Positions 8,962-44,713 of a stretch of 64,000 nt of DNA are shown here, piece after piece. The stretch spans positions 17,997 through 81,996 of the forward strand of contig JAIRKT010000022.1 in the NCBI GenBank assembly GCA_031259965.1, given 5' to 3'. Below the pieces are notes generated by a model. That model was not told the DNA's origin. It was given only the letters and a program-made list of their open reading frames with translations, and searched no databases. Positions within the stretch are counted from its first letter, which is position 1. Each line of letters opens with the position of its first letter. This DNA comes from Christensenellaceae bacterium. Lineage in GTDB: Bacteria > Bacillota > Clostridia > Christensenellales > DTU072. The translations under genes and the position numbers were made by a program.

Positions 8962-9040
8962 ACATGCATGTTTGGTATAAGCTCTATACATGATTCTATT
9001 TAGTATTTTTAACCAATCGCGGCGGAGGTATTCTCCTAGG

Positions 9041-21371: not shown

Positions 21372-21377
21372 GGTATA

Positions 21378-22226: not shown

Positions 22227-22235
22227 GGAGGCATT

Positions 22236-24713: not shown

Positions 24714-24726
24714 GCTAATACCTCTT

Positions 24727-26852: not shown

Positions 26853-26947
26853 CTGAGATATATCCTCCGATTTTAGATATTAGACGAATCTCTTGTGATT
26901 TACAAAAAAAATTGTCTAAGTTTCAAAGTAAATTTTTCTTCTATATT

Positions 26948-26976
26948 ATTATAATCTTAATAACAAAAATAGTCAA
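26948..26976 (-). promoter_or_regulatory. Promoter of gldA-dhaK-dhaL
   Basis: On the minus strand: TTGACT (26976-26971), 17-nt spacer, TATAAT (26953-26948). Confidence 0.6.
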
Positions 26977-27095
26977 TACTGACATGTAAATTTGCATATT
27001 TTTATTTACAAAAATTTAACCTAAAACTAACCAAAGCAGTGCAAATTAGTAGTGTGCTAGTAAAAGTTATATAAAAAGTGTGAAATTCGTAAATA

Positions 27096-27737: not shown

Positions 27738-27739
27738 AA

Positions 27740-28483
27740 TCAATCCCCCATATAATCAGGCAGTGACAACTCAAGATTGATTTTAATAGTTGTATCATTC
27801 AAATCAGACGCTAGTAGTCCTGCTGGATATACTAAAAAAACATTGAGTGTTATGGGGATGCTTTGATGAGCTGGCACAATTAACAAGTCATCATAAAAGA
27901 GTGTTATAGCGTTTTCAGGCTCAGTGTAGCCATCACTATTCACTATATATAATTGATCGTTTAAAAGGTAGAGTGCTTTTTTATCTAGCGGTGCAAACCC
28001 ATTAATATCTACATAAAAACCATCAATGTGGTTATAATAAATTAGAGTTCCATAGATATTGTAGCTAGCTGTTATTGCAATTTCGCCATTTAATATTAGA
28101 TCGCGTGTGCTGGCTCCTGTTTTTGAAATTGTCGCTGTAAAATTCGATCTAACCCTACCTGTTAATAATGGATCGCCTGTGTAGAATGTAAATGAGGTGG
28201 AGTAATTGAGTTCACCTCTTTCTTTTACAATGTTTTGGGGATCGTTCCAGGTGTTTTTTGCTAGACTAAGTGCAGTAACCTCTGCTGGATATAAGGCGGT
28301 TTTGCCATCATTAATAGGTGAATCAAACGATAAAACCACGAGGCCTTGGCTTGGGACTAAATAGTTTAAGGTGAACTCGTATGTAGAATTGAACCATGAA
28401 AAAGTAGCACCTATAGATAATGTAATAATAGATGCGAATAAGCATAGTATAGACAATGAGGTTATAATGATTCTAGTTTTCAT
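27740..28483 (-). CDS. Small secreted beta-rich protein with SipW/TasA-class signal motif (247 aa)
   Basis: ATGA start/stop overlap with the upstream gene. The N-terminus MKTRIIITSLSILCLFASIITLSIGATFSWFNS resembles the GGTFAYFSD / GGTWAAFND motif of camelysin and TasA signals. Confidence 0.72.
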   Translation of the reverse strand: MKTRIIITSLSILCLFASIITLSIGATFSWFNSTYEFTLNYLVPSQGLVVLSFDSPINDGKTALYPAEVTALSLAKNTWNDPQNIVKERGELNYSTSFTFYTGDPLLTGRVRSNFTATISKTGASTRDLILNGEIAITASYNIYGTLIYYNHIDGFYVDINGFAPLDKKALYLLNDQLYIVNSDGYTEPENAITLFYDDLLIVPAHQSIPITLNVFLVYPAGLLASDLNDTTIKINLELSLPDYMGD

Positions 28484-29148
28484 TCAGTCACCCTAGGTCT
28501 TATCAAATAGTTCAATGTAAAATAGAATTTAGCGCCTACATATTTTAAATCAGAAAAGGTAGAAGGTGGATAGGTAAAGTCGCCAGCAGTCCATTGTTCG
28601 TATGAATTTTTTGGCAAATAAATTATTTTTAAAGTAAACTCGTTATTTCCATCACGCACAGCATATGGCTCACTATCGCTTAGTCGTGCTACAATATTAG
28701 ATGAATTAATGTAGTATTCGGTTTCGTCATTATCTAACAACCTGAATGTAAAGTAGTTATCACTAACTGATGATGAAATAATATATTTAGAAGTATCAGC
28801 AAGTGTGCCATGTGTCGCTACGAAATTATCTAAATTAATTGATAATGTGCAATTCAAGTTTGAAGTATTACTTACAATGTTTATATTAACCCCGACAAAA
28901 AACGGCGCGTCCTTAGTGCCAGGGCTACCCAGGCCAGTTTCACCCGCATATCCAAGGGACTCAATTAAACTCGAGCTCAAATTAGCGGTTAGAGGTGTTT
29001 GAGAAGTTATAGAGGTGTCACTAGTATCTATTTCTGCGTTTTTATAAAACCAAGCAAAAGATGTCACTAAGGCGGTTGCAATCATAATGATTAATGTGAA
29101 AGGTATTATAAGGTGTTTAAATAGTTCAGCTCTTAAAAATTTGCCCAT
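28480..29148 (-). CDS. Small secreted beta-rich protein with SipW/TasA-class signal motif (222 aa)
   Basis: The ATG immediately follows the giant gene's TAA (TAAATG). The N-terminus is ...IIPFTLIIMIATALVTSFAWFYKN. Confidence 0.72.
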   Translation of the reverse strand: MGKFLRAELFKHLIIPFTLIIMIATALVTSFAWFYKNAEIDTSDTSITSQTPLTANLSSSLIESLGYAGETGLGSPGTKDAPFFVGVNINIVSNTSNLNCTLSINLDNFVATHGTLADTSKYIISSSVSDNYFTFRLLDNDETEYYINSSNIVARLSDSEPYAVRDGNNEFTLKIIYLPKNSYEQWTAGDFTYPPSTFSDLKYVGAKFYFTLNYLIRPRVTE

Positions 29149-30290
29149 TTAACCACCACCGCTACGTTTTTTTATTATAACCAGCTGACCAGATGTGTCT
29201 AAAAATACAGGAATATCTGTGGAGACATCTGAACTGTAAATAGCGTATCCATTCGTAATATAGGATTCACCATAGTATGTGCCTGTGCTTTGCAGATTGT
29301 ACGTCTCATAAGGGATTATGATGTCGTTTAGTAGTTCAAATGAAGCCCAACTATATATTTGCATTAATACTAATTGTCTAAAGTTCGAAATCTTTAGGGG
29401 GTTCGAACTTGTACCAGCTGAGATCGATGTGTCTGCTAAGAGATAAGATTTTAAAAGATTTGAATGCAAAAGATTTATTAAACTTGTGTAATTTGCACCC
29501 GCTTGATATTGTGAATAAGTAAGGGCATAAGTCTCATCTAGAGAAAGAATTGAATCGTTTAATGAAATTGAGTTTTTAAGATAATTACCATTAATTGTAA
29601 GAATCTCCGTATCGTATGAACCAACCAACCCATCGACTGATAAACTAGTTGTTTTTGAACTAATTGTTATATCTACAAAACTATAGATACTATCAAATAA
29701 TAACGGTTCTATAGAATCTGTAAAATATTTACCAATAAGAGATCCAACTGCAAAATCTGGAAAATCAGAGTCAAAAGTGCTTTTAACAAACATATAACCT
29801 ACAGCTTCTATATTTGCGAATGTTGAGTTAGATGAATAACCAGCAATTGACCCAGCATACAACTCAGATTCACCTGAGGTTATAAAGATAGTGCCTTGGA
29901 AAGAAATATTAAAAACATCTGAATCATTTATAGTGCCAGCAACACTGCCCACGCGCGAGCTATTTGATGATATTGTAGCGTTTCTTAATACTAAATTAGT
30001 AACAACACCGCCATTTATGCTTTTGAATAAGCCCGCGCCATCGACATATAAATTAGAGATAGTGTAACCACCACCGTCATATGTGCCTGTTAAATTCTCA
30101 GCTGGGATATAAATTGAACCATTATACGCATCAATCCCATCGATATCCGCTTTTTGATAAATAACATAATTTACACCATCTTCTGTTAGACCATCTACTA
30201 AATATCTAAGATTCAGGAGTTCATTTAAATTCTTTACATAAAACTCGTGGGTTTCTGCATTTTTTATTTCAAAACCAACAATCCTTATAA
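29149..30290 (-). other. C-terminal GLUG-motif module of the 4,735-aa protein (approximate bounds)
   Basis: LTGTYDGGGYTISNLYVDGAGLFKSINGGVVTNLVLRNATISSNSSRVGSVAGTI..., LYAGSIAGYSSNS and FAVGSLIGKYF. These are the F-x-G-x-fDG-x-GytIsnL plus repeated G-x-hAG/GLUG pattern (PF07581-like). Confidence 0.55.
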
Positions 30291-33200
30291 ATGGTAAATT
30301 ATATGTATAGTTATTTATTATATCAGTGGTTTCTCCGTTCAATGAAATATTAAAGTAGTAGTAAGGAGGCAGATTTTTGCTGGCGTAATCAGTGCGCCAT
30401 GTTATATTATCAACAGTAAGAGATGAGAGCTCCGCTTTAAGCGTGTTGAATTCATTATCTAATATTGTGTCACCACTGTTATAGGCATTTGTTATTGAAT
30501 CTAAGATAACATCTTGTATGTCGCTTATTTGTGTTACATTATCAAGCGATTGCAATGTGTTTAAATATGCTATGTTAACCTTGCGTTTTAGTATATCATA
30601 ACCGGTGTTATTGTTAATTATGTTAAATGTATAATTAGAATTGTTATCGCCGTCTTTTGACGAGAAGTCTTCGAGGACTTTTAGTATATGAGAGCCAGCA
30701 TTTGTTGCAAGCGTATTTGTATCAGCGCTATAAACTACACCCACAGCTCCCGATATCTGGTTGCCTGCGACCAGGTTATTAGAGAATGTGAAAGTTAGAG
30801 GAACGTAACTAGAATCAACTTTATCTAATTTTTCAAAAGTTGTTTTTGAATCATATATTTTGCTAAGAGAGCTTAAAATCGTAACACTAATCACACGTTT
30901 TGTTATATACCAGGCTCTGCTTAATTGTGGGATTGTGAACGAATAATTAGAGAGTCTATCGTAGTCTGCGATGTTATGGAAACTTACAGATGAGGTATAA
31001 TTATTGCTTGCTATGAATGAATATCCTAACCTTTCAATCTGAATATATGGAATGTCAGATGACTCAATGCCAGTGATAGTTGCGTTGTAAGTTTTAGTTG
31101 TCCCATCGTATTCAAATGAATTTGTAGAAGGGTATGAAATATTTAATGGTTTTTGAGTGATAGTTCCAGGGATACTATATATAATGTAATTCAACGCATC
31201 AGTTCCTGTTAAATTAAAGGTCAGTGTATTCGCTAAATCAACAAAAGGAGAATTAAATGAAGCAGTAGCAAATATGCTCGTGCCTGTGATTGGTTTATAA
31301 TCATTATCTTGACTACTAGATGCAGAAACTTCTGTGTCTAAAGAGAATGCAGTGAATGAAGCACTCGCGTCATATACTTTGGTTGGAGCAGCTAGTCCAG
31401 ACGTGAGAATTATTCGTAATTCCTTTGGCTGGATAGTAAACTTGATATTAACACTAGGCACTATACCTGTAGTATAATCGCAGTCTGTTGAATCAGTAGA
31501 GGCTGCATTAGATAGTGCAAACACGACATTATAGACCCCAGCATTACGAAGCCCGCCTTCACTTAGATATGAACTGAAGGTGCACTCTAGCAATGCAGTA
31601 TCTTCACCTTCTTTATAAATCAGAACGCTTATGTCTTGTGCATTAGTCTGAGCAGGCAGGTTAGTGACAAATTGATTAAGCGAATTGAAAACTACAGTTT
31701 GAGGTGACGCATTATCAATGATTACACCTGTAAATGATTTGCTTACTCTAAACTCCTTTATAACATGATTATAGAAACCAGTGAAACTCGACGATGTTTT
31801 AGGTAGCGTACTATCTACTGTGTCGTGAGTTACAGAGACTAAAGAGATTAAATCATTCGCGTTTTCTTCGAAATATGTTGCGTTGTATCCATCGCCCTCA
31901 GTTGTAAAGGCAAAGTTAGCACTCTCACTGCCTGTAAATGAGAATAGTGCCCAGTAGAGTCCAGCGTGTACAGGACCCGTGCTAGATAGCGCCAACTGAT
32001 GATCAGCGTGGTAAGTAGCAGATTCGCCAATGCCACATGAGCAAAGTCCAACAAAAGCAATAGTTAAATTTATATCATTAATAGAGTTATAAAAGGAATC
32101 ATTAACAGCACTAATTGCAATTGTATGAGCCGCTCCATTATATATCATTCCAGTTGAACCCCATGTGTAGACTGCATTGGAATATGTCACTTCAATATTA
32201 GTAATATCTATAGCATATGGGTTTATTGTGTATGCTAAACTCGCGGTTGAATCTAAAAGATAATTGATATAATCATCTGTATCATAATTGATTATGGCCG
32301 TTGCAGTGTGATAGCCTGCATCGCGATTTGAATTGTTGTCTAAATTTAGAGTTATTGTATCGCCAGTGCAAACGCCATTTGTTGAATTAGATTGTGCCGT
32401 GATAGTTTGAGTTTCACCATTAAATGTAAGTGGTGATGAGTAGTTCCAACTAACACTGATTGTTTTAGCGCTAATTGTTATTGTAATATAGTCTGGTTGT
32501 GTTAGAATATAGTTGGACGAAGCTTCCCCCTCTAGGGTTATAGCACTAACAACTGCTTTATCTATGCCTACATTTTTATCAGTTGATGCGGTGTTGAGAG
32601 AAAACGAAATGAGGTCTGTATCAATTGTCTCAATGCCTACAAGGGTGCCACCAGTGAGTTGAACACTAGTTGTGCCATCGTATATTCTGTTGGTTGCAGT
32701 AACGCCATTTATAGTAATTGTTTTTGCATAAATAGAACCTGTAAATGTGAAGGTAAAATTATTTTCGGTTTCATCTCCTACAATAATATCGTTTATGTTA
32801 CTTGATGCTAGTCTATAATTTTTTCCATCATTATCGCTAATTGATAGTGTGATGGTTATATTAGAAGAGGCTGAAACATTTTTGTTTGCGAAGTTAGATG
32901 AGATGATTGTATAATCCTCGCCAGTGACTAGAGGGTCAATGGTAAAATGCGATCCACTAGTAATAGCGGCATCTGAATTACCATTATATTCTTTAGAGTA
33001 AGGACTGCCTTTGGTGACTTGCAGCACGAGAGGAGTGATTGACGCTTCAAAATCAATATAGGTGCTAGTCAAATTATAGTCTGCAATCCAGTAATCTAGA
33101 GAACTTGACTGGAGTGATTGTATAGTGAAGGTTACTTTAGTAGCTGATACATTTTTTGTATCGTACTCTGGCGTGCCATATAAAATGTCAAAGTAAGTTT

Positions 33201-36200
33201 CTTCACCCGGTGCAAACCCTGAGAGTTGGTAATAGCTTTTTGTTAAGGTGGTTGTTGTTTGTTTATTCCCATTATAGGTTTTGCTAATCACAGGATGAGA
33301 CTCGAGTGCTGTAGCAGTGACAGGGGCTGGGTTTATTTTAGCTGGCACAGTATCGTTTATTCCTACAAAGGTATAGTTTGTGGTTGGGTAGCTAGTTGTG
33401 TTTGTGCTAATTAGTGAGGATGTTACAAAAGTAACATGAGTAGCATCTGTATGCCGAGAATTATAAACAGGTGCAGTAAATGAAGCGTCGTAGTATGAAA
33501 CTTCGCTTGGTAGTAAACCAGATAAGGTGTAGAAACCATCTTTTGCAAAAACAATAGCTGTAGGCAGGGCAGTAGTACCATCATAATATTTTGTAATGCT
33601 AGCATAATCCTTGTTAACTTTTATGCTGACAGCTAATGGCAGGATTGATCCGACATTTGCAAGTGTTAAAATTTTATTAGATAACATTGAAGATGGGGAT
33701 ATTGTCATTGTATAGTTTGAAGATTTAGCGCCAGTTAATTGGGGGTTATTAATTGTAATTGTCTTGTTATTTGCTGCATGTTTAGTATCATAGCTAGGCG
33801 TACCGCTAATATCAATTAAGTCCTCTCCACAAATGCCAGTCAAAACATATCCAGCGAGTGCGCTTTGAGTGTTGCCATCATAATTTTTAAGAACTGAATT
33901 AGCAGTACCTAGTGTTAAAACAATAGTAGCCTGTATAATCTCCCAGTCAAGTTGTCTATTATATGTCGTAACAGTATAATTGTTAATGTCACCAGGATTT
34001 TCAGCATGACTTGAATAAATTACTGTGACTTCAGCCTTGTACTGTCCAACATCGGTTTTTTTGTTGTTTGTATAGCTATAGTTAGCGGATAGTTTTTCGG
34101 CCCCTATTCCTGTGAAATATTCAGTAAGAGGCACACTTACTATTTTTTCGCTACTGTCGTAGGTAAATGAATCCGTATAATCCCATTTGATAGTAATGCC
34201 TACTGGACATTTAGTAACTTCTGCATCATATTGCAGGATTGTTTGTGTATAACTAAAGTTAGAGGCTTTGAAGCCACTACCAGCTACTAGAGTATTAAAT
34301 GTAACACTCAGAATGTTGTTTGCATAGCTTACGTTTTTGTTAGCGAAAGTTTTTGATGATATGTTAATATCACTAAGTTCGTTTTTTAAAGTTGCAGACA
34401 AAACCACACCATCGGCTTTGATTAAATAGTCTGTATCTTTTATAGGCGGAGTTCCTGAATAGTCAGTGCCGCCATCATATGTCATAGTAAATTTTTTGTT
34501 TGAAATCTTTTCTATTGTTATTTGTGCTGGGTTAATGAGGCCCAATATAGTAGCGTCACTTGCTATTGTATAATTCTTAGTTATAGAGGGATCGCCTGTT
34601 AAACTAATATTTTCAAGATAGAGATCAATAGGTGTAGCACTCGCGTCTTTACTAGAATATTTGCCACTTCCTATTGAAATCTGAATTGCTTCATTATTAT
34701 GAATGTTTGATAGAGTATAATGGGTATTGCGTATAATATTGCTTATATTAACCTGCGTCGTGCCGTCATAACTTTTTACAACAGGTGAGGTAGATTGCAT
34801 AGTAACTAGAATTACTCTCTGTATAATATTAAAGTAGTATGCGTCATCTATAAATTCTGTATAATAATTTGTAGCTATGAAGGTACCAGACGAGGATAGT
34901 TCAAACGATCCAATATTATAGGCATAAGGACCAACGTCTTCGCCTTCTGCTCTTGATAATGAGCCTGTATAACTTAAAACTTCACCAGTTATTATGCCTG
35001 ATACGCTAAATGTGTAAGCGGATCCTGATTGAGATGATGGATCTGGGGAGCCATAAATTTTTTGCTGGCCAGCCGAGGGTGTAATGGTAATAAGTTTTGG
35101 TGTAATACTAGCGCTAAACCAAAACTCAGTGTTATTAGTGAGTCCAATGCCTGTAGCACCATCAGCTAGAGTTAATAAATAATTAGTGTTTTTGTCAGTT
35201 TGATCTGAACTGTCTTGAATAGATATAACAACAATAACTCTTTGGTCAGTAACTATGACGTCTTTTGCAAAAAATTGTGCACTAACCTGAGTTAGCGTGT
35301 CACCACTAATGAGAGATTCAATTGAATAATGATTTGACGAGAGATTAACAACAGTGTTTGTTGTCCCGTCATATGGCTTCGAATATGGGATTCCTTTTGA
35401 TAGAGTAATAGGTTTTCGGGTTATAGTGCCATATATTTTGAATGTATATGGATTCTGGGTTTCACTGCCTACAGATACAACACCAGCATTTTCTAGTGTA
35501 TAGTTCTTACCATTATTGCCATCAGTTATACTAAAAGTAATTAAAATAAGTTTATATGTTCCAGCATCGACGTTTTCAAAGAGTGCAGAACTCTGGGTCG
35601 CAGTGTCACTCGCCCCCTGATATTCAGCAAGGTTTGCAAAAGAATAATGGGTGTTTTGTAATACTTCTGTCGAACTATTTTTGTTATAAGGTTTAGAATA
35701 GACACTATGTAGTGACTGGTCGTATATTACTTGCAAAGATCTAGGGGTTATGATGCCAGGGATATTAAATGAGTGGTTTAACTCCTGAGTTTTATTATTC
35801 AATGTAATACTAGAGGTGCTAGATGAATCAACTGCTAAAGTATAGTTATTTCCATTATTGTCGTCTGTAATACTAATCAGAACTAATATTGTTTTATTAC
35901 CTACGTTTATGTCAGTGAATGTAGCGGAGACTTGGACTGCCTGATCACTCCCCATAAGCTGTGGAACAGTGTAGTGAGAGGAGGCGAGTGTTACATCTGT
36001 TAGATTATTTTTGTCATAAGTTTTTGTGTAGGGATTACCAGCTGTTAAATATAAAACATATTCAGTTATTTTACCATAGATATTAAATGAAATTTGTGGT
36101 AAGACTTCTGTGCTTAGATTGTAGGCATTTGAACCTAAAACTATGTTATAGTTCGCGCCATTAAAATCATCTGAGATTGTCAAAACTACTTGTATTTTAG

Positions 36201-39200
36201 TGTTTGACTCACCGACATTTGTGTCTGTAAATTTAGCGCTATTTTGGAATGCGGAGTCATTGCCTTGAAAACCATCTAACGAATAGTGACCTGATAATGA
36301 GGTTATAGTCGTAGAATCAGTTTTATTATAGACTTTTTCAAATTTTGTGCTAGTAGATCCTGCTATAGTAAGATTTACTTTAGTAATACTGCCTTTTATG
36401 GAAAAGGCATAAACAGGAGAGGCACTTTGAACTATCGTCCCACTTCCTGCCACCAAGTTGTAATTACCAGAAGTGGAGTCATCTTGAATGCTGAGATTTA
36501 TGAAAATATCCTTATTTGAGCCCACATTCTTGTCTCCAAACAGAGCTTGTGTTTGGCTGACTAATGTGGTGTCACCTGTTGCAATGTTAACTAATGTGTA
36601 ATAAGCATTGTTATATGTAATGAGAGTTGTTAGATTATCATCATATGGTTTTGAATAGTTAGATGAAGTTGCACTAACAGTTAATTCGCGTTTTAGAATA
36701 TTGGCGGCTAGTGTGAATGTTAATGTGCTAGTTTCAACTGCCAAAATATTTGAGCCTTTAACAAGCGTGTAATTGCTGTTTGTAACCTCATTGGTTCCTG
36801 TTGCTTTTATGGTAAGCACTACAGTTAAAACTTTAGAAGTACCTACATGTTTGGTGTCAAATGTCGCAATGTGAGAGGATGACTCGATCAGCGGAATATT
36901 TGACATTGTATAATGTGTAGTAATACTAAAGGCATCAGCTGTTGTCGTTGAATCATATGTTTTTTCAAACAATGCGGCTCTAGTTATAGTTATAGCAAGT
37001 GGTGTAATTGTACCTTTTAATGTAAAAGCAGGATTAACGCCTGTTGCGTTAGTAACTATTAACGCTGTAGAAGTGTCTGCAACCATATTGTAATTGTCAC
37101 CACTATTACCATCTGAAATTGTGACTATCACGGAAATATCTTTGTTTGTGCCCACGTTTTTGTTATCAAAATATGCAGAATATGTTTGTTGAAAGGAGTC
37201 ACTACCATATGAACTATTAGCAAATCCTGTAATTTCATAATGAGTATTTGCAGTGATTGCGGCGGAATTTGTGCCATCATACGGTTTGGTATAAGGATTT
37301 TTAGCTTTAGCAGTGAGAGTTTTCTGCGTAATCGTGCCATTAACTATAAAGGAAAATTGGTTACCTGATAGTGGGCTAATCGTATTAACAGAAGAGTTTG
37401 CAGCGGTTAATGTATAGTTGTTACCATTATTACCATCAGATATAGAGAAAATTACTTTAATTTCTCTCACTCCAACGTTATAATTTTGAAAATTCGATGA
37501 AACATAACTAGCGGAATCGCCTGGTTTAAATCCAGTTATTGTATAGTTGGTAGGCGAATTAAAAGAGGGCGTATTATAATCCTTGTTATACTCTTTTGTG
37601 TAATTAGTGGCTTTTGTAATTGTCAAAGAAACACTAAATATTGTACCCTTTAATATAAAACTATGAGAGTTTGCGGTCGCTCCCCCAGATGTTGCGGTTC
37701 CATTAACTAATTTGTAATTAGCGCCTGGGGTAGGATTACCATCATTAAAATTAACTAAAACAGTAATATTTTTGTCAGTACCTACATTTTTGTTGTCAAA
37801 CAAAGCTGATACAAATATTGGATATTCAGATTCAATTGTGTTTGCATATGAATAATGAGTATTAAGGGTTACTGAGGCTATGTTATCTCCATTATAATCG
37901 CGAGAATAGGGAGTACCAGCGTTCACAGTAATTTGTCTGACAGTTATATCACCTTTTATTGTAAATGTGTAATTTGTATTTGACGTGCCTGTGACTGTGC
38001 TAGTGTTAGTGCCGACTGCAGGCGCATAATTTGCGCCAGAATTACCATCATTAATAGAAAATAGGGCGGTTATTGTTTTATCAGTGCCTACATGTTTTGA
38101 ATCGTATGTAGGAGTTGATCTGAGAGTGAAAGTATCATCAGCGCTTACAAGGCCTGCTACTGTGTAATTGGTGTTTAGAGCAATACTAGCATTAGTATTT
38201 GCGTCATATACCTTTATAAACCTCGTAGTATAATTGATCGAAAGTGATGCTTTGTTTATAACCCCACTGATTGTAAATGAGTGAGAGTTAGTACTGTTTG
38301 TAATACCACTAATTCCTGTGCCAGCTAGATTATAGTTTTTATCCTCACTGCCATTTCCTATATTAAAAACAACAGTAATAGTGTTTGTGCCTGCGTTTTT
38401 TGTATTAAAAGTAGCGGACACATGAGTGGCTGTTGTGCTAATTAAATCTGTTACTTTGTAGTACCCCGTATCAGACAGGGTAAAGCCCTCAGCGACATTA
38501 AGCCCATTATATGTTTTGGAATAACCCTTTAGAATTTGCACATAAATATTTTTCTTATTAATAACCCCATTAGTTACGCTCCAATCTTGTATAACTTGCG
38601 AAGCGTTACCTAAATAATAATTACGCTGATCTTTGTGCACACTAAGGCCTGTATATTTAACAGTCAAATTTTGACCTACGTCTTTTGTAGGATTTCCTTG
38701 ATTATCATAATATATGCCGCTAGAGCCAGCTCCAGTGATCGCAAGCTGAGTGTCACCAGCTACCCATCCGTTAATGGTGAGATTATATGGGGCAGTTGTG
38801 TTACCGTCATACGTTTTTGTGGGACCAGGTGTGGCGTTTGCAACAGATAGTGGTTTTTTTGTTATTGTAATCTTGAGCTCAACAGAGCCATTTTCTCTAG
38901 CTCCGTACTGTGGAATGCTGAGTCCATCAAGAAAGAGCATTCCATCACCAAATTTTCTAGCGTATAGTAGTTTACCAGAAGTGCGGCTTTTCGCATAATC
39001 CATTGTGTCATAAAGTTCAATTGCATAATAACCATTACTGTTATAATGTGTTGAAGCCTCTTTGTTTAAAAGAGTGTAAGATGCAGAAGAGTTAACACTC
39101 CCATTAACAGGTGTGGGTGCGCCACTTTTATCAGTTTCGATTATCGATATTGAACTAACAATTGAAAGAGTTGTAAATGAAGTGTTTTCAAATTTATATG

Positions 39201-42200
39201 TTACTACAATATCCTTTTTGTCATAGACTTTAGAGTATGATAAAGTGGAAATTTCTGGATATTCTGCATTAGCTTGTTGTGTTAATGTGGCTATACTGCC
39301 ATTGTCTACTAATTGAACATAGGCTTCTGTATAATACATAGCATGTCCTTTTGGAATAGAAGCTTGGGATTTTGGGAAAAAGACAGGCCATGAGGTTGCG
39401 ACAGCGTCATATATTAAATAGATAGTCCCTCCATTATCAATAGCGGAAAAACAAACATCTTCACCAGAATCCATACTATATGTTGTAAAGATAATACCAT
39501 CTTTGATTGAGTTATATGTGACCCTAGGTGTATAGGAGCTAGCAAGTTTGTTGGTTCCAACGTATATATTATTTATCGCGACTCTTTTGTTGTTGCTTGT
39601 GCTACCAGAGTTAATTGCCACTAAAGTGTCAGCTGTGCCTATCCAGTGCTTGAGGCTACTGGTGCCTACATCTAAAGTGTCGGGTAAATTATAGGTAAAC
39701 ATTTGTACCTGGCCATTTTTGACTTTGGTATCATTAAAGGGATCTTCAACGTTAAACGCGCGAATATATCGTTTAGTTGCGATTGTTGGATTTGTGCTGG
39801 TTCTATAATCTGTATTTATATGATCCAACATGGCTTCAACAAAGGATGTGGAGTCTGGATAAACAGTTGCAATACGTGTATTAAGGCCTTCAGGAACGTA
39901 AATATTTATGGCAACTCCAAAAACGTCGCTGTTATTATTAAAGGTACAACCTTCCATTTTACGTCCAATAAAAAGTCCAGCACCATGGGGTGCATTACCA
40001 TCCATAGAACCAGAAAAACCCTTACTACCAGATCGGTTTGAAAGTATTGTGCCTCTAAAATCGTATATGAATCCATCAAGGTTTAATGTTGAATGTACAC
40101 CACTTTCACCATTGCGCGATAAATTTCCAACTATTCCTCCAGCAAAGGAGACAAGATCTCCATTAGCAACAGTCCATTGATATGCGCCTATTAAACTAGT
40201 GGAGGTTCCTTTTATTTTACAGTCTTTCATATAAACCACAAGAGTATTTGCATAACCTCCTGTTTTAGTAGCCATGATTTCGCCGATAAATCCACCAACG
40301 CGCGACCCAAGTTGCTTTGTGCCAAAAACAGCACCTTCAACCCGAGATTCAGTTGCTGCATATAAGGCTACATTTGATGCCATTTCAAAGGTGCAGTTGA
40401 TGATTGATACTGGTGTGTTATGTAGTTGAGAATCGTTGAGAACTTGACCCACGAACCCACCTAGACTAACACCAACACCGCCTTTACTGTCTGTTACATG
40501 ATTTCCAGCAAAAATAACTGATGCGTTTAATTTAACCTTGACATTTTGAATTACCGAATTATTTCTTGAAAGTCCAGTTACAATACCGAATGTCCAGTTC
40601 ATACCATTGACACCTGCTACATTTCCAAGCATTAGGCTTTTATCTACATTTATAGTTAAATCATAAATTTTACCACCCCTTAGTTGACCTGTAAGCAATC
40701 CATGATATGTGTTGGGATATTCTCCGTTCGAATTGCCTTCGCGCTCTAGGCTAGCCAAAAAATTGCCGGTCTCATATGCGTAGTCTGACCAAGGCTTAGT
40801 TGTTGCTACAGGCCAATCGAGATTATATGATATTGTTTTATTGTTGCCATATAAAGAGCCAGTAAACCAATTTTTTGAACTTGACCAGGCATCATAGTTC
40901 TTAGAATTATTGTCGCTGTAATGTTTATCTTGATGTCTCGCTCCGCCGTATGAGATAGATATTTCATTTGCATTCATTAAAGAGTCGTCTGGGTTTCTGT
41001 TATAACCTTTACCAGTTACCACTATATCATTAGCAAGCACATAAATCCCAGCGTGCAGGCCTCTACTGCTAACATTGTTCCACAGATCTTCCTTAGTTGA
41101 GATTTTTGTAACTACAGCTCCTTGTACAGTCAATTCGGCACAAGAAAGATAGTTATTAGTAGTGCTATGATTACTACCATTACCATCCCAGGTGCTTGTG
41201 GCTCTTAATACGACGTATCGCGCTTTGTAGAGCCTTGAGAATGTGATGGGTGTAGTTATAGTATCACGCCCAAAAAATGCTATTCCATTAGCCGGGTTTA
41301 CGCCTTCGTCAAGCTTAAAAAATTTAGTGTTACCTCTTCCTATATTTAGTAAATCTGAATTACTTACATTTGTCGCTGTCCCACCCATATTTTTATCTAT
41401 ATAAATTTCAAATCGATCAATTGTTCCATTGCTGTAACTGTCTGGACGTCTTGTATATGTTATACCTGATACTAATCTTGTTTCTTTTAAGTCAATAACA
41501 ATATAACTGTTAAAGTCAGTGATACGTGTATCGTTTTTACTTCCTGATTGATTGTGCAGGCCATATTCCGAATCGTTGTATCGAGTTTCCCATGAGCTGT
41601 GGTATATAGTGGAATTATTTCCGTCATTAATATTTGAGGCGTTGTAGTTTCCTTGTTCAGAATCAGGAGCGTATGCCACTGAATAATTGGAATAACCACC
41701 AGAGCCATAATAACTACCAGAAACATCCGCTAAATTATACATATCTGTAGATGTGAGGTCACTGGGTTTATCACTTTCAGTGGAACTCTCAAATTCCCAA
41801 TCCGATATTTTAAGTTCACTGAAACTTAGTTGGTGACTCCACGATATTCCATCGGTGTTTGCTATTACCCTTACATAAACATACCTTGTGTAGATCCTTT
41901 CAAAAGTCATATTAATAATAGGGTATAAGGTTCTAGGAGTTAAGAAGACACTTCCAGTATTGTGTTTTGCTATACTAACCGCTTTTGTGGTGGACATAAA
42001 AAAGGACTCGGGTTGCTGATCTAGGGGCATGCAATTTGTGGCGGCTAAAATTTCTACTTCACCTATTACTTCTAAAGTGCTTGGAGTTATCTGCAGTCTT
42101 GAAATTGGACGGACCGCTCCTAAATCTAAAAGGACATATTTAGTAGCACCACCATATACCATATTATGACTCATATTGGCAATTTTTTGAAATTTGTTAT

Positions 42201-43356
42201 AGTAATAAGTATAATAATTTGATGTCACAATAGGATCAAAAACAGAACTTGCACGATAATACCCTATATCATCAGCACTTTTAACGCTTTGAAATCCTGG
42301 CTTTGCGGCATCGATTGTAGTAGAGAGTGCTTGAGGTGAGGGAGCGTGGACTACATCGTACATATATCCTAGATCACGATCCGGCGCGCCCACTTCACCC
42401 CATATAGATAGTTTTTGCATTTTAACGTAGTTTAGATACCAACATTCGTCAATTTGCAAAGCGATATATCTTGTGTAAACAGAATCGAAATCCATTACAC
42501 GCGCTTCATCACTAAACTCGGGCACTACCGTATTAGTTGATTTTCTTGTGCGTATGTTATTATTTCTTTCAACGTTTGTTGTATCAGTTTTAGTTGTGGT
42601 CGTTGGGTAGTATTGTGTGTTAGAATCAGTGTCACTTATGTTGTGCTGATAGACATTTCTAAAGTAACCATTGGTTTTGAGATTTAAATTAGAAGGTACA
42701 GGAGGCCAATCTGTAACTAAGTCACTAACCCACACCCCATATGTTAGTATGTTATCAAAATAAAAGCTGCTAACACTAGAATCTATGGTTTCAAAAATTA
42801 CACGCGATACGGGCACAACATGCTTTAGATCAATTATAATATAAGAGTGACTAGCTGATCCAGGATCAAATGCTGCAGGGGAGTTTACACTCTCGTCACT
42901 ACTACTACTAACCAAATACGAGCCTGTATTTGATCTGTTATAACCAGATACTGATGAATACCATGTACCCGCATTTGTTGACCATTGTTTGCCGCTAGTC
43001 TCAAGATAATAGGAGTCATAAGATGGGTCCACCCCATCTATGTACTTATTAACATCAAAAGAATCAACAACAGTGCCACCATCAGTTCTATTTGGGTATA
43101 AACCAGCAAGGTATTGTACACTATACTCATACTCGGTAAGAGTGCCAGCAGTATCAGGATAACTGTCTGCGTCGGCTAAAAAATAACCATCACTACCCAA
43201 AATACCCAGTGTTATAGCAAAACACAAAAAAACCATAACAAGCATAGAGGAGAAATATTTGTTAATAATCGTCCTCGAGTGTCTTAAATGGCCTCTGTTT
43301 CTTTCAGATTTTTTAGAGATGAGAGTATTAGACTTGCAAATTGAAATCCTAGACAA
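29149..43356 (-). CDS. Giant secreted/N-terminally anchored surface protein: discoidin x3, GLUG, ~30 MBG/YDG modules, GLUG (4,735 aa)
   Basis: TTG start with a GGGGGGAGGA RBS 5 nt upstream. N-terminal basic region plus TM (MLVMVFLCFAITLGILG). The 14.2-kb frame is uninterrupted. Domain evidence is given in the sub-features. There is no C-terminal TM or LPXTG; the protein ends ...LVIIKKRSGGG. Confidence 0.92.
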   Translation of the reverse strand: MSRISICKSNTLISKKSERNRGHLRHSRTIINKYFSSMLVMVFLCFAITLGILGSDGYFLADADSYPDTAGTLTEYEYSVQYLAGLYPNRTDGGTVVDSFDVNKYIDGVDPSYDSYYLETSGKQWSTNAGTWYSSVSGYNRSNTGSYLVSSSSDESVNSPAAFDPGSASHSYIIIDLKHVVPVSRVIFETIDSSVSSFYFDNILTYGVWVSDLVTDWPPVPSNLNLKTNGYFRNVYQHNISDTDSNTQYYPTTTTKTDTTNVERNNNIRTRKSTNTVVPEFSDEARVMDFDSVYTRYIALQIDECWYLNYVKMQKLSIWGEVGAPDRDLGYMYDVVHAPSPQALSTTIDAAKPGFQSVKSADDIGYYRASSVFDPIVTSNYYTYYYNKFQKIANMSHNMVYGGATKYVLLDLGAVRPISRLQITPSTLEVIGEVEILAATNCMPLDQQPESFFMSTTKAVSIAKHNTGSVFLTPRTLYPIINMTFERIYTRYVYVRVIANTDGISWSHQLSFSELKISDWEFESSTESDKPSDLTSTDMYNLADVSGSYYGSGGYSNYSVAYAPDSEQGNYNASNINDGNNSTIYHSSWETRYNDSEYGLHNQSGSKNDTRITDFNSYIVIDLKETRLVSGITYTRRPDSYSNGTIDRFEIYIDKNMGGTATNVSNSDLLNIGRGNTKFFKLDEGVNPANGIAFFGRDTITTPITFSRLYKARYVVLRATSTWDGNGSNHSTTNNYLSCAELTVQGAVVTKISTKEDLWNNVSSRGLHAGIYVLANDIVVTGKGYNRNPDDSLMNANEISISYGGARHQDKHYSDNNSKNYDAWSSSKNWFTGSLYGNNKTISYNLDWPVATTKPWSDYAYETGNFLASLEREGNSNGEYPNTYHGLLTGQLRGGKIYDLTINVDKSLMLGNVAGVNGMNWTFGIVTGLSRNNSVIQNVKVKLNASVIFAGNHVTDSKGGVGVSLGGFVGQVLNDSQLHNTPVSIINCTFEMASNVALYAATESRVEGAVFGTKQLGSRVGGFIGEIMATKTGGYANTLVVYMKDCKIKGTSTSLIGAYQWTVANGDLVSFAGGIVGNLSRNGESGVHSTLNLDGFIYDFRGTILSNRSGSKGFSGSMDGNAPHGAGLFIGRKMEGCTFNNNSDVFGVAINIYVPEGLNTRIATVYPDSTSFVEAMLDHINTDYRTSTNPTIATKRYIRAFNVEDPFNDTKVKNGQVQMFTYNLPDTLDVGTSSLKHWIGTADTLVAINSGSTSNNKRVAINNIYVGTNKLASSYTPRVTYNSIKDGIIFTTYSMDSGEDVCFSAIDNGGTIYLIYDAVATSWPVFFPKSQASIPKGHAMYYTEAYVQLVDNGSIATLTQQANAEYPEISTLSYSKVYDKKDIVVTYKFENTSFTTLSIVSSISIIETDKSGAPTPVNGSVNSSASYTLLNKEASTHYNSNGYYAIELYDTMDYAKSRTSGKLLYARKFGDGMLFLDGLSIPQYGARENGSVELKITITKKPLSVANATPGPTKTYDGNTTAPYNLTINGWVAGDTQLAITGAGSSGIYYDNQGNPTKDVGQNLTVKYTGLSVHKDQRNYYLGNASQVIQDWSVTNGVINKKNIYVQILKGYSKTYNGLNVAEGFTLSDTGYYKVTDLISTTATHVSATFNTKNAGTNTITVVFNIGNGSEDKNYNLAGTGISGITNSTNSHSFTISGVINKASLSINYTTRFIKVYDANTNASIALNTNYTVAGLVSADDTFTLRSTPTYDSKHVGTDKTITALFSINDGNSGANYAPAVGTNTSTVTGTSNTNYTFTIKGDITVRQITVNAGTPYSRDYNGDNIASVTLNTHYSYANTIESEYPIFVSALFDNKNVGTDKNITVLVNFNDGNPTPGANYKLVNGTATSGGATANSHSFILKGTIFSVSLTITKATNYTKEYNKDYNTPSFNSPTNYTITGFKPGDSASYVSSNFQNYNVGVREIKVIFSISDGNNGNNYTLTAANSSVNTISPLSGNQFSFIVNGTITQKTLTAKAKNPYTKPYDGTNSAAITANTHYEITGFANSSYGSDSFQQTYSAYFDNKNVGTNKDISVIVTISDGNSGDNYNMVADTSTALIVTNATGVNPAFTLKGTITPLAITITRAALFEKTYDSTTTADAFSITTHYTMSNIPLIESSSHIATFDTKHVGTSKVLTVVLTIKATGTNEVTNSNYTLVKGSNILAVETSTLTFTLAANILKRELTVSATSSNYSKPYDDNLTTLITYNNAYYTLVNIATGDTTLVSQTQALFGDKNVGSNKDIFINLSIQDDSTSGNYNLVAGSGTIVQSASPVYAFSIKGSITKVNLTIAGSTSTKFEKVYNKTDSTTITSLSGHYSLDGFQGNDSAFQNSAKFTDTNVGESNTKIQVVLTISDDFNGANYNIVLGSNAYNLSTEVLPQISFNIYGKITEYVLYLTAGNPYTKTYDKNNLTDVTLASSHYTVPQLMGSDQAVQVSATFTDINVGNKTILVLISITDDNNGNNYTLAVDSSSTSSITLNNKTQELNHSFNIPGIITPRSLQVIYDQSLHSVYSKPYNKNSSTEVLQNTHYSFANLAEYQGASDTATQSSALFENVDAGTYKLILITFSITDGNNGKNYTLENAGVVSVGSETQNPYTFKIYGTITRKPITLSKGIPYSKPYDGTTNTVVNLSSNHYSIESLISGDTLTQVSAQFFAKDVIVTDQRVIVVISIQDSSDQTDKNTNYLLTLADGATGIGLTNNTEFWFSASITPKLITITPSAGQQKIYGSPDPSSQSGSAYTFSVSGIITGEVLSYTGSLSRAEGEDVGPYAYNIGSFELSSSGTFIATNYYTEFIDDAYYFNIIQRVILVTMQSTSPVVKSYDGTTQVNISNIIRNTHYTLSNIHNNEAIQISIGSGKYSSKDASATPIDLYLENISLTGDPSITKNYTIASDATILGLINPAQITIEKISNKKFTMTYDGGTDYSGTPPIKDTDYLIKADGVVLSATLKNELSDINISSKTFANKNVSYANNILSVTFNTLVAGSGFKASNFSYTQTILQYDAEVTKCPVGITIKWDYTDSFTYDSSEKIVSVPLTEYFTGIGAEKLSANYSYTNNKKTDVGQYKAEVTVIYSSHAENPGDINNYTVTTYNRQLDWEIIQATIVLTLGTANSVLKNYDGNTQSALAGYVLTGICGEDLIDISGTPSYDTKHAANNKTITINNPQLTGAKSSNYTMTISPSSMLSNKILTLANVGSILPLAVSIKVNKDYASITKYYDGTTALPTAIVFAKDGFYTLSGLLPSEVSYYDASFTAPVYNSRHTDATHVTFVTSSLISTNTTSYPTTNYTFVGINDTVPAKINPAPVTATALESHPVISKTYNGNKQTTTTLTKSYYQLSGFAPGEETYFDILYGTPEYDTKNVSATKVTFTIQSLQSSSLDYWIADYNLTSTYIDFEASITPLVLQVTKGSPYSKEYNGNSDAAITSGSHFTIDPLVTGEDYTIISSNFANKNVSASSNITITLSISDNDGKNYRLASSNINDIIVGDETENNFTFTFTGSIYAKTITINGVTATNRIYDGTTSVQLTGGTLVGIETIDTDLISFSLNTASTDKNVGIDKAVVSAITLEGEASSNYILTQPDYITITISAKTISVSWNYSSPLTFNGETQTITAQSNSTNGVCTGDTITLNLDNNSNRDAGYHTATAIINYDTDDYINYLLDSTASLAYTINPYAIDITNIEVTYSNAVYTWGSTGMIYNGAAHTIAISAVNDSFYNSINDINLTIAFVGLCSCGIGESATYHADHQLALSSTGPVHAGLYWALFSFTGSESANFAFTTEGDGYNATYFEENANDLISLVSVTHDTVDSTLPKTSSSFTGFYNHVIKEFRVSKSFTGVIIDNASPQTVVFNSLNQFVTNLPAQTNAQDISVLIYKEGEDTALLECTFSSYLSEGGLRNAGVYNVVFALSNAASTDSTDCDYTTGIVPSVNIKFTIQPKELRIILTSGLAAPTKVYDASASFTAFSLDTEVSASSSQDNDYKPITGTSIFATASFNSPFVDLANTLTFNLTGTDALNYIIYSIPGTITQKPLNISYPSTNSFEYDGTTKTYNATITGIESSDIPYIQIERLGYSFIASNNYTSSVSFHNIADYDRLSNYSFTIPQLSRAWYITKRVISVTILSSLSKIYDSKTTFEKLDKVDSSYVPLTFTFSNNLVAGNQISGAVGVVYSADTNTLATNAGSHILKVLEDFSSKDGDNNSNYTFNIINNNTGYDILKRKVNIAYLNTLQSLDNVTQISDIQDVILDSITNAYNSGDTILDNEFNTLKAELSSLTVDNITWRTDYASKNLPPYYYFNISLNGETTDIINNYTYNLPFIRIVGFEIKNAETHEFYVKNLNELLNLRYLVDGLTEDGVNYVIYQKADIDGIDAYNGSIYIPAENLTGTYDGGGYTISNLYVDGAGLFKSINGGVVTNLVLRNATISSNSSRVGSVAGTINDSDVFNISFQGTIFITSGESELYAGSIAGYSSNSTFANIEAVGYMFVKSTFDSDFPDFAVGSLIGKYFTDSIEPLLFDSIYSFVDITISSKTTSLSVDGLVGSYDTEILTINGNYLKNSISLNDSILSLDETYALTYSQYQAGANYTSLINLLHSNLLKSYLLADTSISAGTSSNPLKISNFRQLVLMQIYSWASFELLNDIIIPYETYNLQSTGTYYGESYITNGYAIYSSDVSTDIPVFLDTSGQLVIIKKRSGGG
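30560..38860 (-). repeat. Tandem array of ~30 divergent MBG/YDG-type modules of ~90 aa each (approximate bounds)
   Basis: A recurring pattern of K-x-YDG/YNG/YDA-x-T..., Y-x-(L/V)-x-G(L/F)..GD, F-(D/N)-(N/T)-KNVGT-(D/N)-K-x-I-x-V, DGN...NY-x-L and (I/G)TP/K-x-L. The first instance is TKTYDGNTTAPYNLTINGWVAGD at ~38815. The copies differ at the DNA level, so this is not a recent amplification. Confidence 0.65.
39890..41130 (-). other. N-proximal GLUG-motif module (approximate bounds)
   Basis: ISTKEDLWNNVSS...GIYVLANDIVV is followed by GVSLGGFVGQVLN, SRVGGFIGEIM and SFAGGIVGNLSRNG. Confidence 0.55.
41130..43090 (-). other. Three discoidin (F5/8 type C)-like modules (approximate bounds)
   Basis: HSYIIIDLKHVVPVSRVIFET, ATKYVLLDLGAVRPISRLQITPS and FNSYIVIDLKETRLVSGITYTRRPDSYSNGTIDRFEIYIDKN all match the x-I-x-(I/L)DL-x(4-6)-(I/V)-x-(R/G)-(I/L/V) core of PF00754/CBM32-type domains. 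Confidence 0.55.
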
Positions 43357-43459
43357 TCTAATCCTCCCCCCAGAAGTCGCAACTCATATAATATTTCCTA
43401 ATTATTAAGATTTCGAATAATCAGATCAAACTTATTATTGTTCAATAGACTATCTTTAG

Positions 43460-43488
43460 AGTATAACTTATGTAAAATTCCATGTCAG
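43460..43488 (-). promoter_or_regulatory. Proximal promoter of the 4,735-aa gene
   Basis: On the minus strand: CTGACA (43488-43483), 17-nt spacer, TATACT (43465-43460). It implies a ~95-nt leader. Confidence 0.4.
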
Positions 43489-43603
43489 TATCCAAACATA
43501 TGTCCCCAGAGAAGATATGAATTTCTTAATTTTTGATAAAGAATAAATTGTTAACAAAACTCGCAAGGCACATAGAACAAGGTACATTACTAAATTAATA
43601 AAT

Positions 43604-43625
43604 AAAAGGCGAGCCCCGCTTTTAT
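43604..43625 (-). terminator. Terminator-like hairpin in the divergent intergenic region
   Basis: The minus-strand RNA reads AAAAGCGGGGCUCGCCUUUUAUUUAUU. The stem has 3 G-C and 4 A-U pairs with one bulge. A/T runs on both sides make it potentially bidirectional. Confidence 0.35.
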
Positions 43626-44199
43626 TAAATAAAATATAATACAAAATACGAGAAAATATGCCAAAACTCATGCAGGGCTAGTTTTAGCAATTTGTGCCTA
43701 CAGTAAATAGTAGCATTTTAAAATAATAAAAGAAACAAAAGTAGAAACGCATGTCAAAAAAACTACTAGGCGTTATATGCTAAAGCCTGGGAGGTTTAAG
43801 AGCAATGTAGAAAACCAGATAGTTCAAATTGGTTTAAACGAGTTAAACATCAAAATGAGCATACAAAAGCCTGCATGGCTGTGACACAGCGCGCCTAATT
43901 TTTAAGTCTTAAGCGTTTTGTAAAAACTATAAAAAATTCTAAATCAGCACCTCTTTATCAAAAAAATTTGGAATATTACCAGCTAACGCAGCAACTTGCA
44001 GTGACTTGCCACTAAGCTAGATGGAAAACAAAAACCCTAATTAATTTTTGAACGCATAAAAAACTAAACACGAGACTTTAACATAGTAAGAGCTTAGTAT
44101 TTTAATAAAAATCTATTTAAAGAAAAACAAAAGATTTTCATATCCATATATATAATAACATATTTATATAATAAATTAACAGAGTAAATTTACAATTTT
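43604..44199 (-). ncRNA. Candidate ~0.6-kb non-coding transcript or regulated long leader (hypothetical)
   Basis: It is bounded by the consensus promoter at 44206-44234 and the hairpin at 43604-43625. It contains no ORF with an RBS. A noticeably G+C-richer core lies at ~43740-43900. Confidence 0.25.
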
Positions 44200-44205
44200 A
44201 CCAAA

Positions 44206-44234
44206 ATTATACCATATGGCAATAGTAAAATCAA
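44206..44234 (-). promoter_or_regulatory. Orphan consensus promoter inside the divergent intergenic region
   Basis: On the minus strand: TTGATT (44234-44229), exact 17-nt spacer, TATAAT (44211-44206). The hexamers and spacing are the same as in the promoter of the 4,126-aa gene. Confidence 0.5.
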
Positions 44235-44555
44235 GTTTAGTATATATTTTCAAAGAAAAGTAGTAGTTAAAGAATGATAGACATTTTTCATAACTAATAA
44301 TTTTGAAACTTTTTCGAGCACATATGGCCTTGTTAATGAGCTATGCTTTGATTTTTTTATCTTTCTTATCAAGGGCTGCGCTATAATTAGCCTGCTGAAT
44401 GCTGAGTATATAGTCTTTTTTAGCTAAAATAATAATTTAAATTTTTAGTTGATTATGTGTGTGATAGGTTTTCTGAATTAGTTTGGTTTTTAACTATTTT
44501 AAGATAAAAATAAGTAAAATCGCAGCACGTTCTTAAGACAAATAGCTGCTCTCTC

Positions 44556-44584
44556 TTGATTAAATATTACTTTTAATATATAAT
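44556..44584 (+). promoter_or_regulatory. Promoter of the 4,126-aa surface-protein gene
   Basis: TTGATT (44556-44561), 17-nt spacer, TATAAT (44579-44584). Confidence 0.6.
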
Positions 44585-44596
44585 ATATAATAAATA

Positions 44597-44624
44597 TTTG
44601 CGCACAAAGCGCGTGTTGCGCAAA
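44597..44624 (+). promoter_or_regulatory. GC-rich 5'-UTR hairpin
   Basis: TTTGCGCA (44597-44604) pairs perfectly with TGCGCAAA (44617-44624) around the 12-nt loop CAAAGCGCGTGT. It lies about +7 to +35 from the predicted TSS. Confidence 0.5.
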
Positions 44625-44713
44625 AATTAAGGATTGCACCCTTAAAAAGGTCTTTTTATGCTGTTTAATTGACGTTAAATAAGGTTTTTTTTGGTTGTGT
44701 GCTGGAGTAAGTA

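Follow-up and report, generated by a model that had tools for sequence, protein, structure and literature searches.

A giant probable fibrillar adhesin of an uncultured Christensenellaceae bacterium and the three small genes that follow it

The DNA analysed here, referred to as the window (64,000 nt; contig JAIRKT010000022.1, positions 17,997 to 81,996, of assembly GCA_031259965.1), comes from an uncultured gut-type Christensenellaceae bacterium. On its minus strand it carries a giant gene, an uninterrupted open reading frame (ORF) of 4,735 codons (29149..43356) established by ORF reading and translation, which is followed directly by three small genes, here called the accessory trio. With a G+C content of ~36% for the window, the length of this ORF excludes a chance origin. 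It starts with a TTG codon preceded by a GGAGG site that was rated as strong. The features of the giant gene and of the trio, in the direction of transcription and with positions in amino acids (aa) where these apply, are as follows.

43357..43375, minus strand: ribosome-binding site GGGGGAGGA, 6 nt 5′ of the TTG start (read from the sequence; the NCBI start is identical)
43168..43356, minus strand: putative N-terminal export signal, aa 1-63 (translation and hydropathy; cleavage presumed)
42382..43149, minus strand: discoidin-like module 1, aa ~70-325, with a long insert (aligned to module 3 by hhalign with 97% probability, E=1e-10)
41722..42369, minus strand: discoidin-like module 2, aa ~330-545 (aligned to module 3 by hhalign with 95% probability)
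41122..41661, minus strand: discoidin/F5_F8_type_C module 3, aa ~566-745 (PF00754)
39757..41115, minus strand: proximal beta-helix-like module, aa 748-1200 (AlphaFold2 (AF2) model and Foldseek)
38842..39756, minus strand: unassigned region, aa 1201-1505, between the proximal module and the stalk
30622..38841, minus strand: stalk, aa 1506-4245, with a period of ~100 aa (PF18657, own iterated hidden Markov model (HMM) and segment scan)
30322..30621, minus strand: linker from the stalk to the C-terminal module, aa 4246-4345 (no family match; 60% identical to the ortholog)
29152..30321, minus strand: C-terminal module, aa 4346-4735, GLUG/IgA1-protease-N-terminal-like (partial Peptidase_M26_N match)
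28480..29148, minus strand: accessory gene 1, 222 aa, a 22-aa N-terminal hydrophobic segment ending in TSFAWFYKN and then an orphan domain
27740..28483, minus strand: accessory gene 2, 247 aa, a 27-aa N-terminal hydrophobic segment ending in GATFSWFNS and then an orphan domain
27096..27743, minus strand: accessory gene 3, 213-215 aa, a signal-like N-terminus (..GAADTMAVWESS), then a leucine-rich repeat (LRR) domain of the BspA type

An exact look-up identified the product in NCBI as MDR0751186.1, a 'YDG domain-containing protein' of the same 4,735 aa in a metagenome-assembled genome (MAG) that bears the label Christensenellaceae bacterium (locus tags LBF12_*). The existence of the gene is thereby confirmed, it has already been annotated by its commonest domain, and the protein length given by an initial annotation of this DNA, made from the letters alone, was correct. 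Its rough estimate of ~520 kDa also agrees well with the computed mass of 514.6 kDa. A separate Logan contig (run SRR14710918), which may derive from the same reads as the MAG, encodes an identical 4,698-aa version starting at Met38. Nothing was found in an Rfam scan of positions 26800-45000.

The N-terminal head of the protein begins with the three discoidin-like modules. Module 3 (aa 566-726) matches F5_F8_type_C (PF00754) with 35.7 bits when scanned alone (cutoff 28.2); in a scan of the whole protein its score falls to 23.6 bits. Pfam does not match modules 1 and 2 directly, and these were related to module 3 by profile-profile comparison, with hhalign profiles built from four family members; a control with the next module gave a probability of 1.6%. 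In the homolog P0016, the equivalent of module 2 matches PF00754 directly. Taken together with the Pfam match of module 3, these results support the presence of three F5/8-type-C modules as first proposed, and their predicted function is that of glycan binders.

The GG[FI][VI]G motif occurs three times in the proximal module (aa 966, 1021, and 1073). Its AF2 model, made from a four-sequence alignment, is all-beta with short strands (pTM 0.75, mean predicted local distance difference test (pLDDT) 64). The top Foldseek match of this model is PDB 3n6z (probability 1.0, E=8e-3, TM-scores 0.35/0.45), which is BACOVA_03286, a putative IgA1 protease of Bacteroides ovatus, and the next matches are beta-helix pectinases, phage tailspikes, streptococcal IgA1 protease and the binding regions of serine-rich repeat protein (SRRP) adhesins. 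The Pfam GLUG motif (PF07581) remained below its cutoff in this module (12.0 bits, E=0.31, against 20.5 bits). The designation of this ~400-aa stretch as a GLUG beta-helix-like module is thus reasonable at the level of the modelled fold and unproven at the level of the family. Searches of PDB sequences with profiles of this and of the C-terminal beta-helix-like module returned nothing meaningful. The unassigned region that comes next is indeed present, with a length of ~305 aa instead of the ~340 aa first given; it has no Pfam match at E<=10 and no internal similarity.

The stalk spans ~2,740 aa and is composed of 22 YDG modules, one MBG_2 module and ~4 unclassified modules. In the full-length Pfam scan PF18657 (YDG) scored 302 bits over 14 stretches, while an HMM iterated on the protein itself recovered 21 YDG-like copies ~100 aa apart, and a Pfam segment scan added a 22nd YDG and the single MBG_2 copy (aa ~2756-2832, 36.9 bits, cutoff 25). 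A further ~4 modules appear MBG-like by eye and have no family match. The MBG families considered were PF17883, PF18676, and PF18887, and no Pfam match to MBG or MBG_3 was found in the giant protein. The array of MBG/YDG modules described in the initial annotation is therefore there, with a total nearer 27 than ~30. If each of the ~27 Ig-like modules contributes ~4 nm, the stalk would form a rod of ~100 nm.

In a second Christensenellaceae MAG (LBF68) the locus is syntenic and its giant gene encodes 4,739 aa, and the two proteins were compared over the last 3,111 residues of this ortholog, its N-terminus being outside the comparison. These align to residues 1622-4731 with 54% identity, only 48 of the 3,131 alignment columns contain gaps, with at most 6 in any 100 residues, and the stalks are collinear repeat by repeat. 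The repeats had been described as diverged at the DNA level, and this is the case: Tandem Repeats Finder (TRF) detected no tandem repeats, there are no long direct DNA repeats, and the mean identity among the 21 repeats is 26% for amino acids (maximum 49%) and 43% for nucleotides (maximum 59%). As each repeat resembles the ortholog at its own position more than it does any paralog, the array is older than the split of the two lineages, and the repeats are old and have been maintained over the long term, as had been suggested, rather than being the outcome of a recent expansion. The collinear ortholog and the divergence of the repeats are also a strong argument against a collapsed or chimeric array; with no DNA repeats and with an identical Logan product, assembly collapse was rejected.

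Of Peptidase_M26_N (PF05342), only the final 110 positions (140-250) are matched by the C-terminal module, with 29.5 bits against a cutoff of 27.7; a beta-helix-like fold is predicted for the module. Pfam GLUG scored 9.7 bits here (E=1.7), below 20.5 bits. No homology was detected by hhalign between the proximal and the C-terminal 'GLUG' modules, or between either of them and the C-terminal region of G3, a neighboring giant protein described below. What stands of the second GLUG module that was assigned to the extreme C-terminus is thus the partial Peptidase_M26_N match, while the Pfam GLUG match and a kinship with the proximal module do not. The module possesses no transmembrane segment and no sortase motif, and ends with ..QLVIIKKRSGGG. 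Its first 200 aa are the best-conserved stretch relative to the ortholog (64-74% identity against 54% for the stalk). It should be mentioned that aa ~4650-4720 (29152..29400, minus strand) repeat the opening pattern of a beta-helix module (NPLKISNFRQLVLMQIYSWASFELLNDIIIP ... YYGESYITNG); this segment, strongly conserved in the ortholog, resembles the truncated start of a second module.

Resemblance to the M26 IgA1 proteases (ZmpA family) is found in the fold of the proximal module, which besides 3n6z also matches the IgA1 proteases of S. pneumoniae and G. haemolysans, in the Peptidase_M26_N match at the C-terminus, and in the GG[LIVF][VIA]G motifs. However, the giant protein differs from these enzymes in having GLUG matches below threshold, no match to the M26 catalytic domain and no HExxH motif anywhere along its length. 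A protease function was rejected for this reason, and the C-terminal module is not a protease.

When residues 38-1200 were searched exhaustively with HMMER against 1.84 billion representative proteins, just three true relatives (33-38% identity) were identified, all of them in the Christensenellaceae MAGs Roe453_bin112 and Cc175_bin76 of a set of 185,579 species genomes. The head modules of these relatives come in the same order, and two of them (P0016 and P0017) run on into repeat stalks. The head is therefore lineage-restricted, with every one of its building blocks of a known type. P0016 (3,529 aa; JAITQU010000155.1) stops ~95 nt before the end of its contig, at the point where the C-terminal module would begin, and its truncated end aligns by eye with the start of that module; the C-terminus called for it probably reflects truncation in the assembly.

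Fibrillar adhesins have been described as having a repeat stalk of a recognised family, an adhesive region at a terminus, an export signal and usually, but not obligatorily, a known anchor (PMC8286594). The stalk of the giant protein is of this kind, both YDG and MBG being catalogued stalk domains of fibrillar adhesins (PMC9210967), and its terminal adhesive region is provided by the PF00754 match of module 3, the binding of which is predicted. For export, a basic n-region, a hydrophobic core of 17-19 aa and an A-x-A site were observed, and a known anchor is absent. The protein is thus very probably a fibrillar adhesin, and the gene is a lineage-restricted addition to this class that was already annotated by its stalk domain. 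It helps to annotate the ways in which Christensenellaceae may adhere to glycans or particles. With its single giant chain, terminal binding modules, Ig-like stalk and putative export signal it is similar to the fibrillar adhesin-like proteins of Firmicutes (PMC8286594, PMC9210967). It differs from these in lacking an LPxTG, SLH, LysM, or choline-binding anchor, in having a second beta-helix-like module where the anchor normally sits, and in the three orphan genes coupled downstream.

The claim that the protein has no known wall or membrane retention motif is supported. No LPxTG-type motif and no second transmembrane segment were detected in the giant protein by regular-expression and hydropathy scans, and no anchor or wall-binding domain was detected in it with Pfam and NCBIfam. 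For nearly half of the fibrillar adhesin-like proteins no anchor is known, and a transmembrane helix is present in only 20% of these (PMC8286594), which makes the missing anchor less remarkable. With stalk domains that are on record and so many anchor-less members in the class, there is little ground for calling the architecture unusual in a meaningful sense, as it was called at first.

The N-terminus bears on how the protein is held. Residues 1-37 are basic, forming an n-region of 37 aa, and are followed by the sole hydrophobic stretch of transmembrane grade in all 4,735 aa (segment at aa 35-53 by hydropathy, hydrophobic core at aa 38-54; 17-19 aa). Directly after the hydrophobic core is the sequence SDGYFLADA|DS with its A-x-A site. 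In all five family N-termini that were compared, a set to which the LBF68 ortholog does not belong, an A-x-A lies 8-13 residues past the core (ADA, AEA, AVA, AIA, and AAA) and the sequence around it varies. The preservation of this site amid varying surroundings suggests cleavage by signal peptidase I, and it is somewhat more likely than not that the helix is a cleaved signal peptide rather than an anchor. The initial annotation had placed the glycan-binding end next to the only hydrophobic anchor; if the helix is cleaved, this end no longer adjoins an anchor and the concern vanishes. In the first 80 aa no signal-peptide family was matched at E<=10 in NCBIfam, which we assume to hold YSIRK and KxYKxGKxW models. 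A lipoprotein signal was rejected, the only cysteine of the N-terminal area being mid-helix and without a lipobox.

Downstream of the giant gene, the ATG of accessory gene 1 directly abuts the TAA of the giant gene (TAA-ATG), accessory genes 1 and 2 are joined by an ATGA overlap, and the junction to accessory gene 3 is TTGA. The four genes are thus connected by stop-start junctions or 4-nt overlaps, no terminator was found between the giant gene and the trio genes, and the same four-gene order is present in LBF68. These features bear out the association of the trio with the giant gene, and suggest that the four genes form a translationally coupled and conserved unit. Accessory protein 1 is 56% identical to its ortholog, accessory protein 2 has just one homolog among 5.8 billion proteins (57% identity), and accessory protein 3 is 48% identical to its ortholog. 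The LRR domain (PF13306) of the last scored 37.0 bits against a cutoff of 27.7, with 36.7 bits for the ortholog. No family was found for accessory proteins 1 and 2 in Pfam or NCBIfam and no relative in PDB, and the AF2 model of accessory protein 2, based on a 2-sequence alignment, is of low confidence (pLDDT 31). Both proteins have short, positively charged N-termini and hydrophobic segments which are long enough to span the membrane. The motif that ends the hydrophobic segments of the accessory proteins is invariant between orthologs (TSFAWFY in accessory protein 1, GATFSWFNS, and ADT[MF]A[VI]W), and a six-frame translation of the window contains it at no other place.

This aromatic motif recalls the TapA-SipW-TasA/CalY system of Bacillus, in which the SipW-dependent site of TasA (VGGGTWA|AF) has aromatics at P2 and P2′ (PMC10269814). 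The accessory proteins differ from that system in their hydrophobic segments of 22-27 aa, which exceed the typical signal-peptide core, and in their orphan ectodomains, and aromatics at the membrane interface are common in plain transmembrane anchors. No match was obtained at E<=10 in NCBIfam, which presumably includes the SipW-cognate signal model TIGR04088, and none to camelysin/TasA in Pfam. The PDB sequences, among which TasA-type structures are assumed to be present, also gave no match at E<=10, and there is no signal peptidase gene, sipW included, among the main ORFs of the window.

Two further giant genes in the window, G1 and G3, have a bearing on how the protein may be oriented.

8990..19657, plus strand: G1, 3,555 aa, with six MBG_3 stretches, one YDG and a signal-like N-terminus
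44714..57094, plus strand: G3, 4,126 aa, with Flg_new/InlB B-repeats and an N-terminal transmembrane segment only

G1 has an N-terminus of the same style as the giant protein (ASA|F) and an explicit anchor, a C-terminal transmembrane helix (aa 3487-3505) with a basic tail. Staphylococcal surface proteins of the Ebh/Embp type, which are very large and rich in repeats, are retained by a membrane helix and not by sortase. G1 is similar to these in its C-terminal helix and basic tail, whereas the giant protein has no C-terminal transmembrane segment, and its repeats belong to other families. The layout of G1 indicates that a polarity with the head N-terminal and the base C-terminal is used in this genome, and this matches the norm in Firmicutes, where adhesive domains are N-terminal even in proteins with no detected anchor (PMC8286594). 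G3 carries nine GG[IVL][IVFA]G motifs at aa 3588-3962.

The reading we prefer, with a rough probability of 0.35-0.4, is that the signal of the giant protein is cleaved, that its N-terminal head is distal, and that its base at the C-terminus is docked by the trio. The gene would encode a Sec-exported fibrillar adhesin, a single polypeptide of ~515 kDa forming a long surface fiber, and signal peptidase I would cut off its N-terminal helix behind ADA, at ~aa 63. The end with the discoidin and beta-helix modules would then be the distal glycan-binding head, in keeping with the usual Firmicutes polarity, and the C-terminal module, being the last to leave the translocon, would stay at the cell and be captured non-covalently by the trio products, made from the same mRNA right after the giant protein. 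Accessory proteins 1 and 2 would be bitopic membrane proteins (N-in) with ectodomains of ~190-210 aa, and accessory protein 3 a secreted LRR adaptor.

Gene arrangement and analogy form the whole basis of the docking step. A purely functional analogy is offered by the cellulosome scaffoldin, of which the C-terminal X-dockerin is bound by a small anchored cohesin protein. In a similar manner a separately anchored, nearby-encoded partner might hold the C-terminal module of the giant protein, a hypothetical arrangement for a system in which no cohesin or dockerin domains are present. In its most specific form, the trio would be a new retention or assembly device that captures the C-terminal beta-helix-like module as it exits the translocon, consisting of two membrane or SipW-processed proteins with a shared T-F-[AS]-W-F motif and the LRR adaptor. 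Such a device is judged quite unlikely from the sequences at hand; if real, it would be one concrete answer for the approximately one half of fibrillar adhesins without a known anchor, and the compact conserved four-gene unit is a testable candidate for the anchor question.

Several points weigh against docking by the trio. Cleavage of the N-terminal helix was deduced solely from the -3/-1 rule and the tie between the trio and the giant gene solely from gene arrangement, while the accessory proteins have one homolog each, two of them have no family and none has a confident model. The beta-helix modules in the list of Foldseek matches serve more commonly as heads, for binding or catalysis, than as anchors. 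The aromatic motif past the accessory transmembrane segments could itself be a cleavage site, in which case these proteins would be secreted and not membrane anchors. Finally, G3 has a GLUG-like end and an N-terminal transmembrane segment only, with no accessory genes downstream, a layout which N-terminal anchoring fits at least as well as docking.

N-terminal anchoring is the alternative that survives best, and is possible though on the doubtful side. The uncleaved helix (aa 35-53, type II) would anchor the protein, the C-terminal beta-helix-like module would be the distal adhesive tip, the discoidin and proximal beta-helix modules would lie beside the membrane or in a thin wall, and the trio would be unrelated or auxiliary. 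The helix being the only segment of transmembrane grade in the protein is consistent with this, as is the same layout in G3 (an N-terminal transmembrane segment of 19-23 aa and a GLUG-like region at the C-terminus, again with no accessory genes), and beta-helix modules are typical distal binders. Such an anchor would suffice if the peptidoglycan is thin, as has been inferred for several atypical Bacillota, among which Christensenella minuta is listed (PMC11448272). This species is reported to have an atypical envelope that stains Gram-negative and no genes for a lipopolysaccharide outer membrane, and Gram-negative staining in some related Bacillota has been ascribed to thin peptidoglycan (PMC11448272). 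Thin peptidoglycan, if it applies here, would make membrane anchoring workable whether the N-terminus is cleaved or retained, and in the former case partners anchored in the membrane could extend to the surface. However, the A-x-A conserved past the helix in five of five family members speaks for cleavage, the polarity would be opposite to both the Firmicutes norm and that of G1, and the three modules for glycan binding would end up buried at the base.

An unlikely alternative is that the signal is cleaved and no protein anchor exists, the fiber either binding the surface glycans of its own cell by means of the three discoidin modules or being shed into the matrix, so that the binding modules at both ends would cross-link cells, particles or polysaccharide. 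The lack of a known anchor of any type agrees with this, as do the binding-type modules at both ends and the proportion of anchor-less proteins, nearly half, in the class (PMC8286594). It leaves the conserved and translationally coupled trio unexplained, though, and it has to assume a glycan specificity for the discoidin modules.

That the trio instead has signals of the SipW class (T-[FW]-[AS] | x-F), cut by an archaeal-type signal peptidase, and builds, by donor-strand exchange, a short TasA-like fiber or base to carry or nucleate the giant protein is improbable, the invariance and resemblance of the aromatic motif being set against the negative searches, the segment lengths and the missing peptidase gene given above.

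Together, G1, the giant gene and G3 occupy ~37 kb of a 48-kb stretch. The giant gene and G3 are divergent, and the spacer between them (43357..44713) is 1,357 nt long, non-coding and AT-rich. Within it, 409 nt are flanked by the two arms of a perfect 13-nt inverted repeat (43530-43542 / 43952-43964) and include a promoter-like site (43664..43636) facing the giant gene. An invertible promoter for phase variation was considered and was not significant, as 16 of 300 shuffles gave a repeat of equal length; no recombinase is encoded in the window.

The genes after G1 (19641..23255, plus strand) code for uncharacterised membrane proteins with no Pfam match, one of 576 aa with N- and C-terminal transmembrane helices and two that are polytopic (282 and 339 aa). 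Each giant gene may thus have its private accessory membrane partners. At the start of the window, an ORF of 914 aa (32..2776, plus strand) which runs off the window start has no Pfam match and weak NCBIfam matches to Rad50/SMC-like coiled coils. The genes that come immediately after the trio encode glycerol dehydrogenase and dihydroxyacetone kinase (Fe-ADH, Dak1, and Dak2; 24054..26852, minus strand). Their order is shared by the second MAG (L002 11642..14456), and it is therefore the whole neighborhood, and not the adhesin unit alone, that is syntenic.

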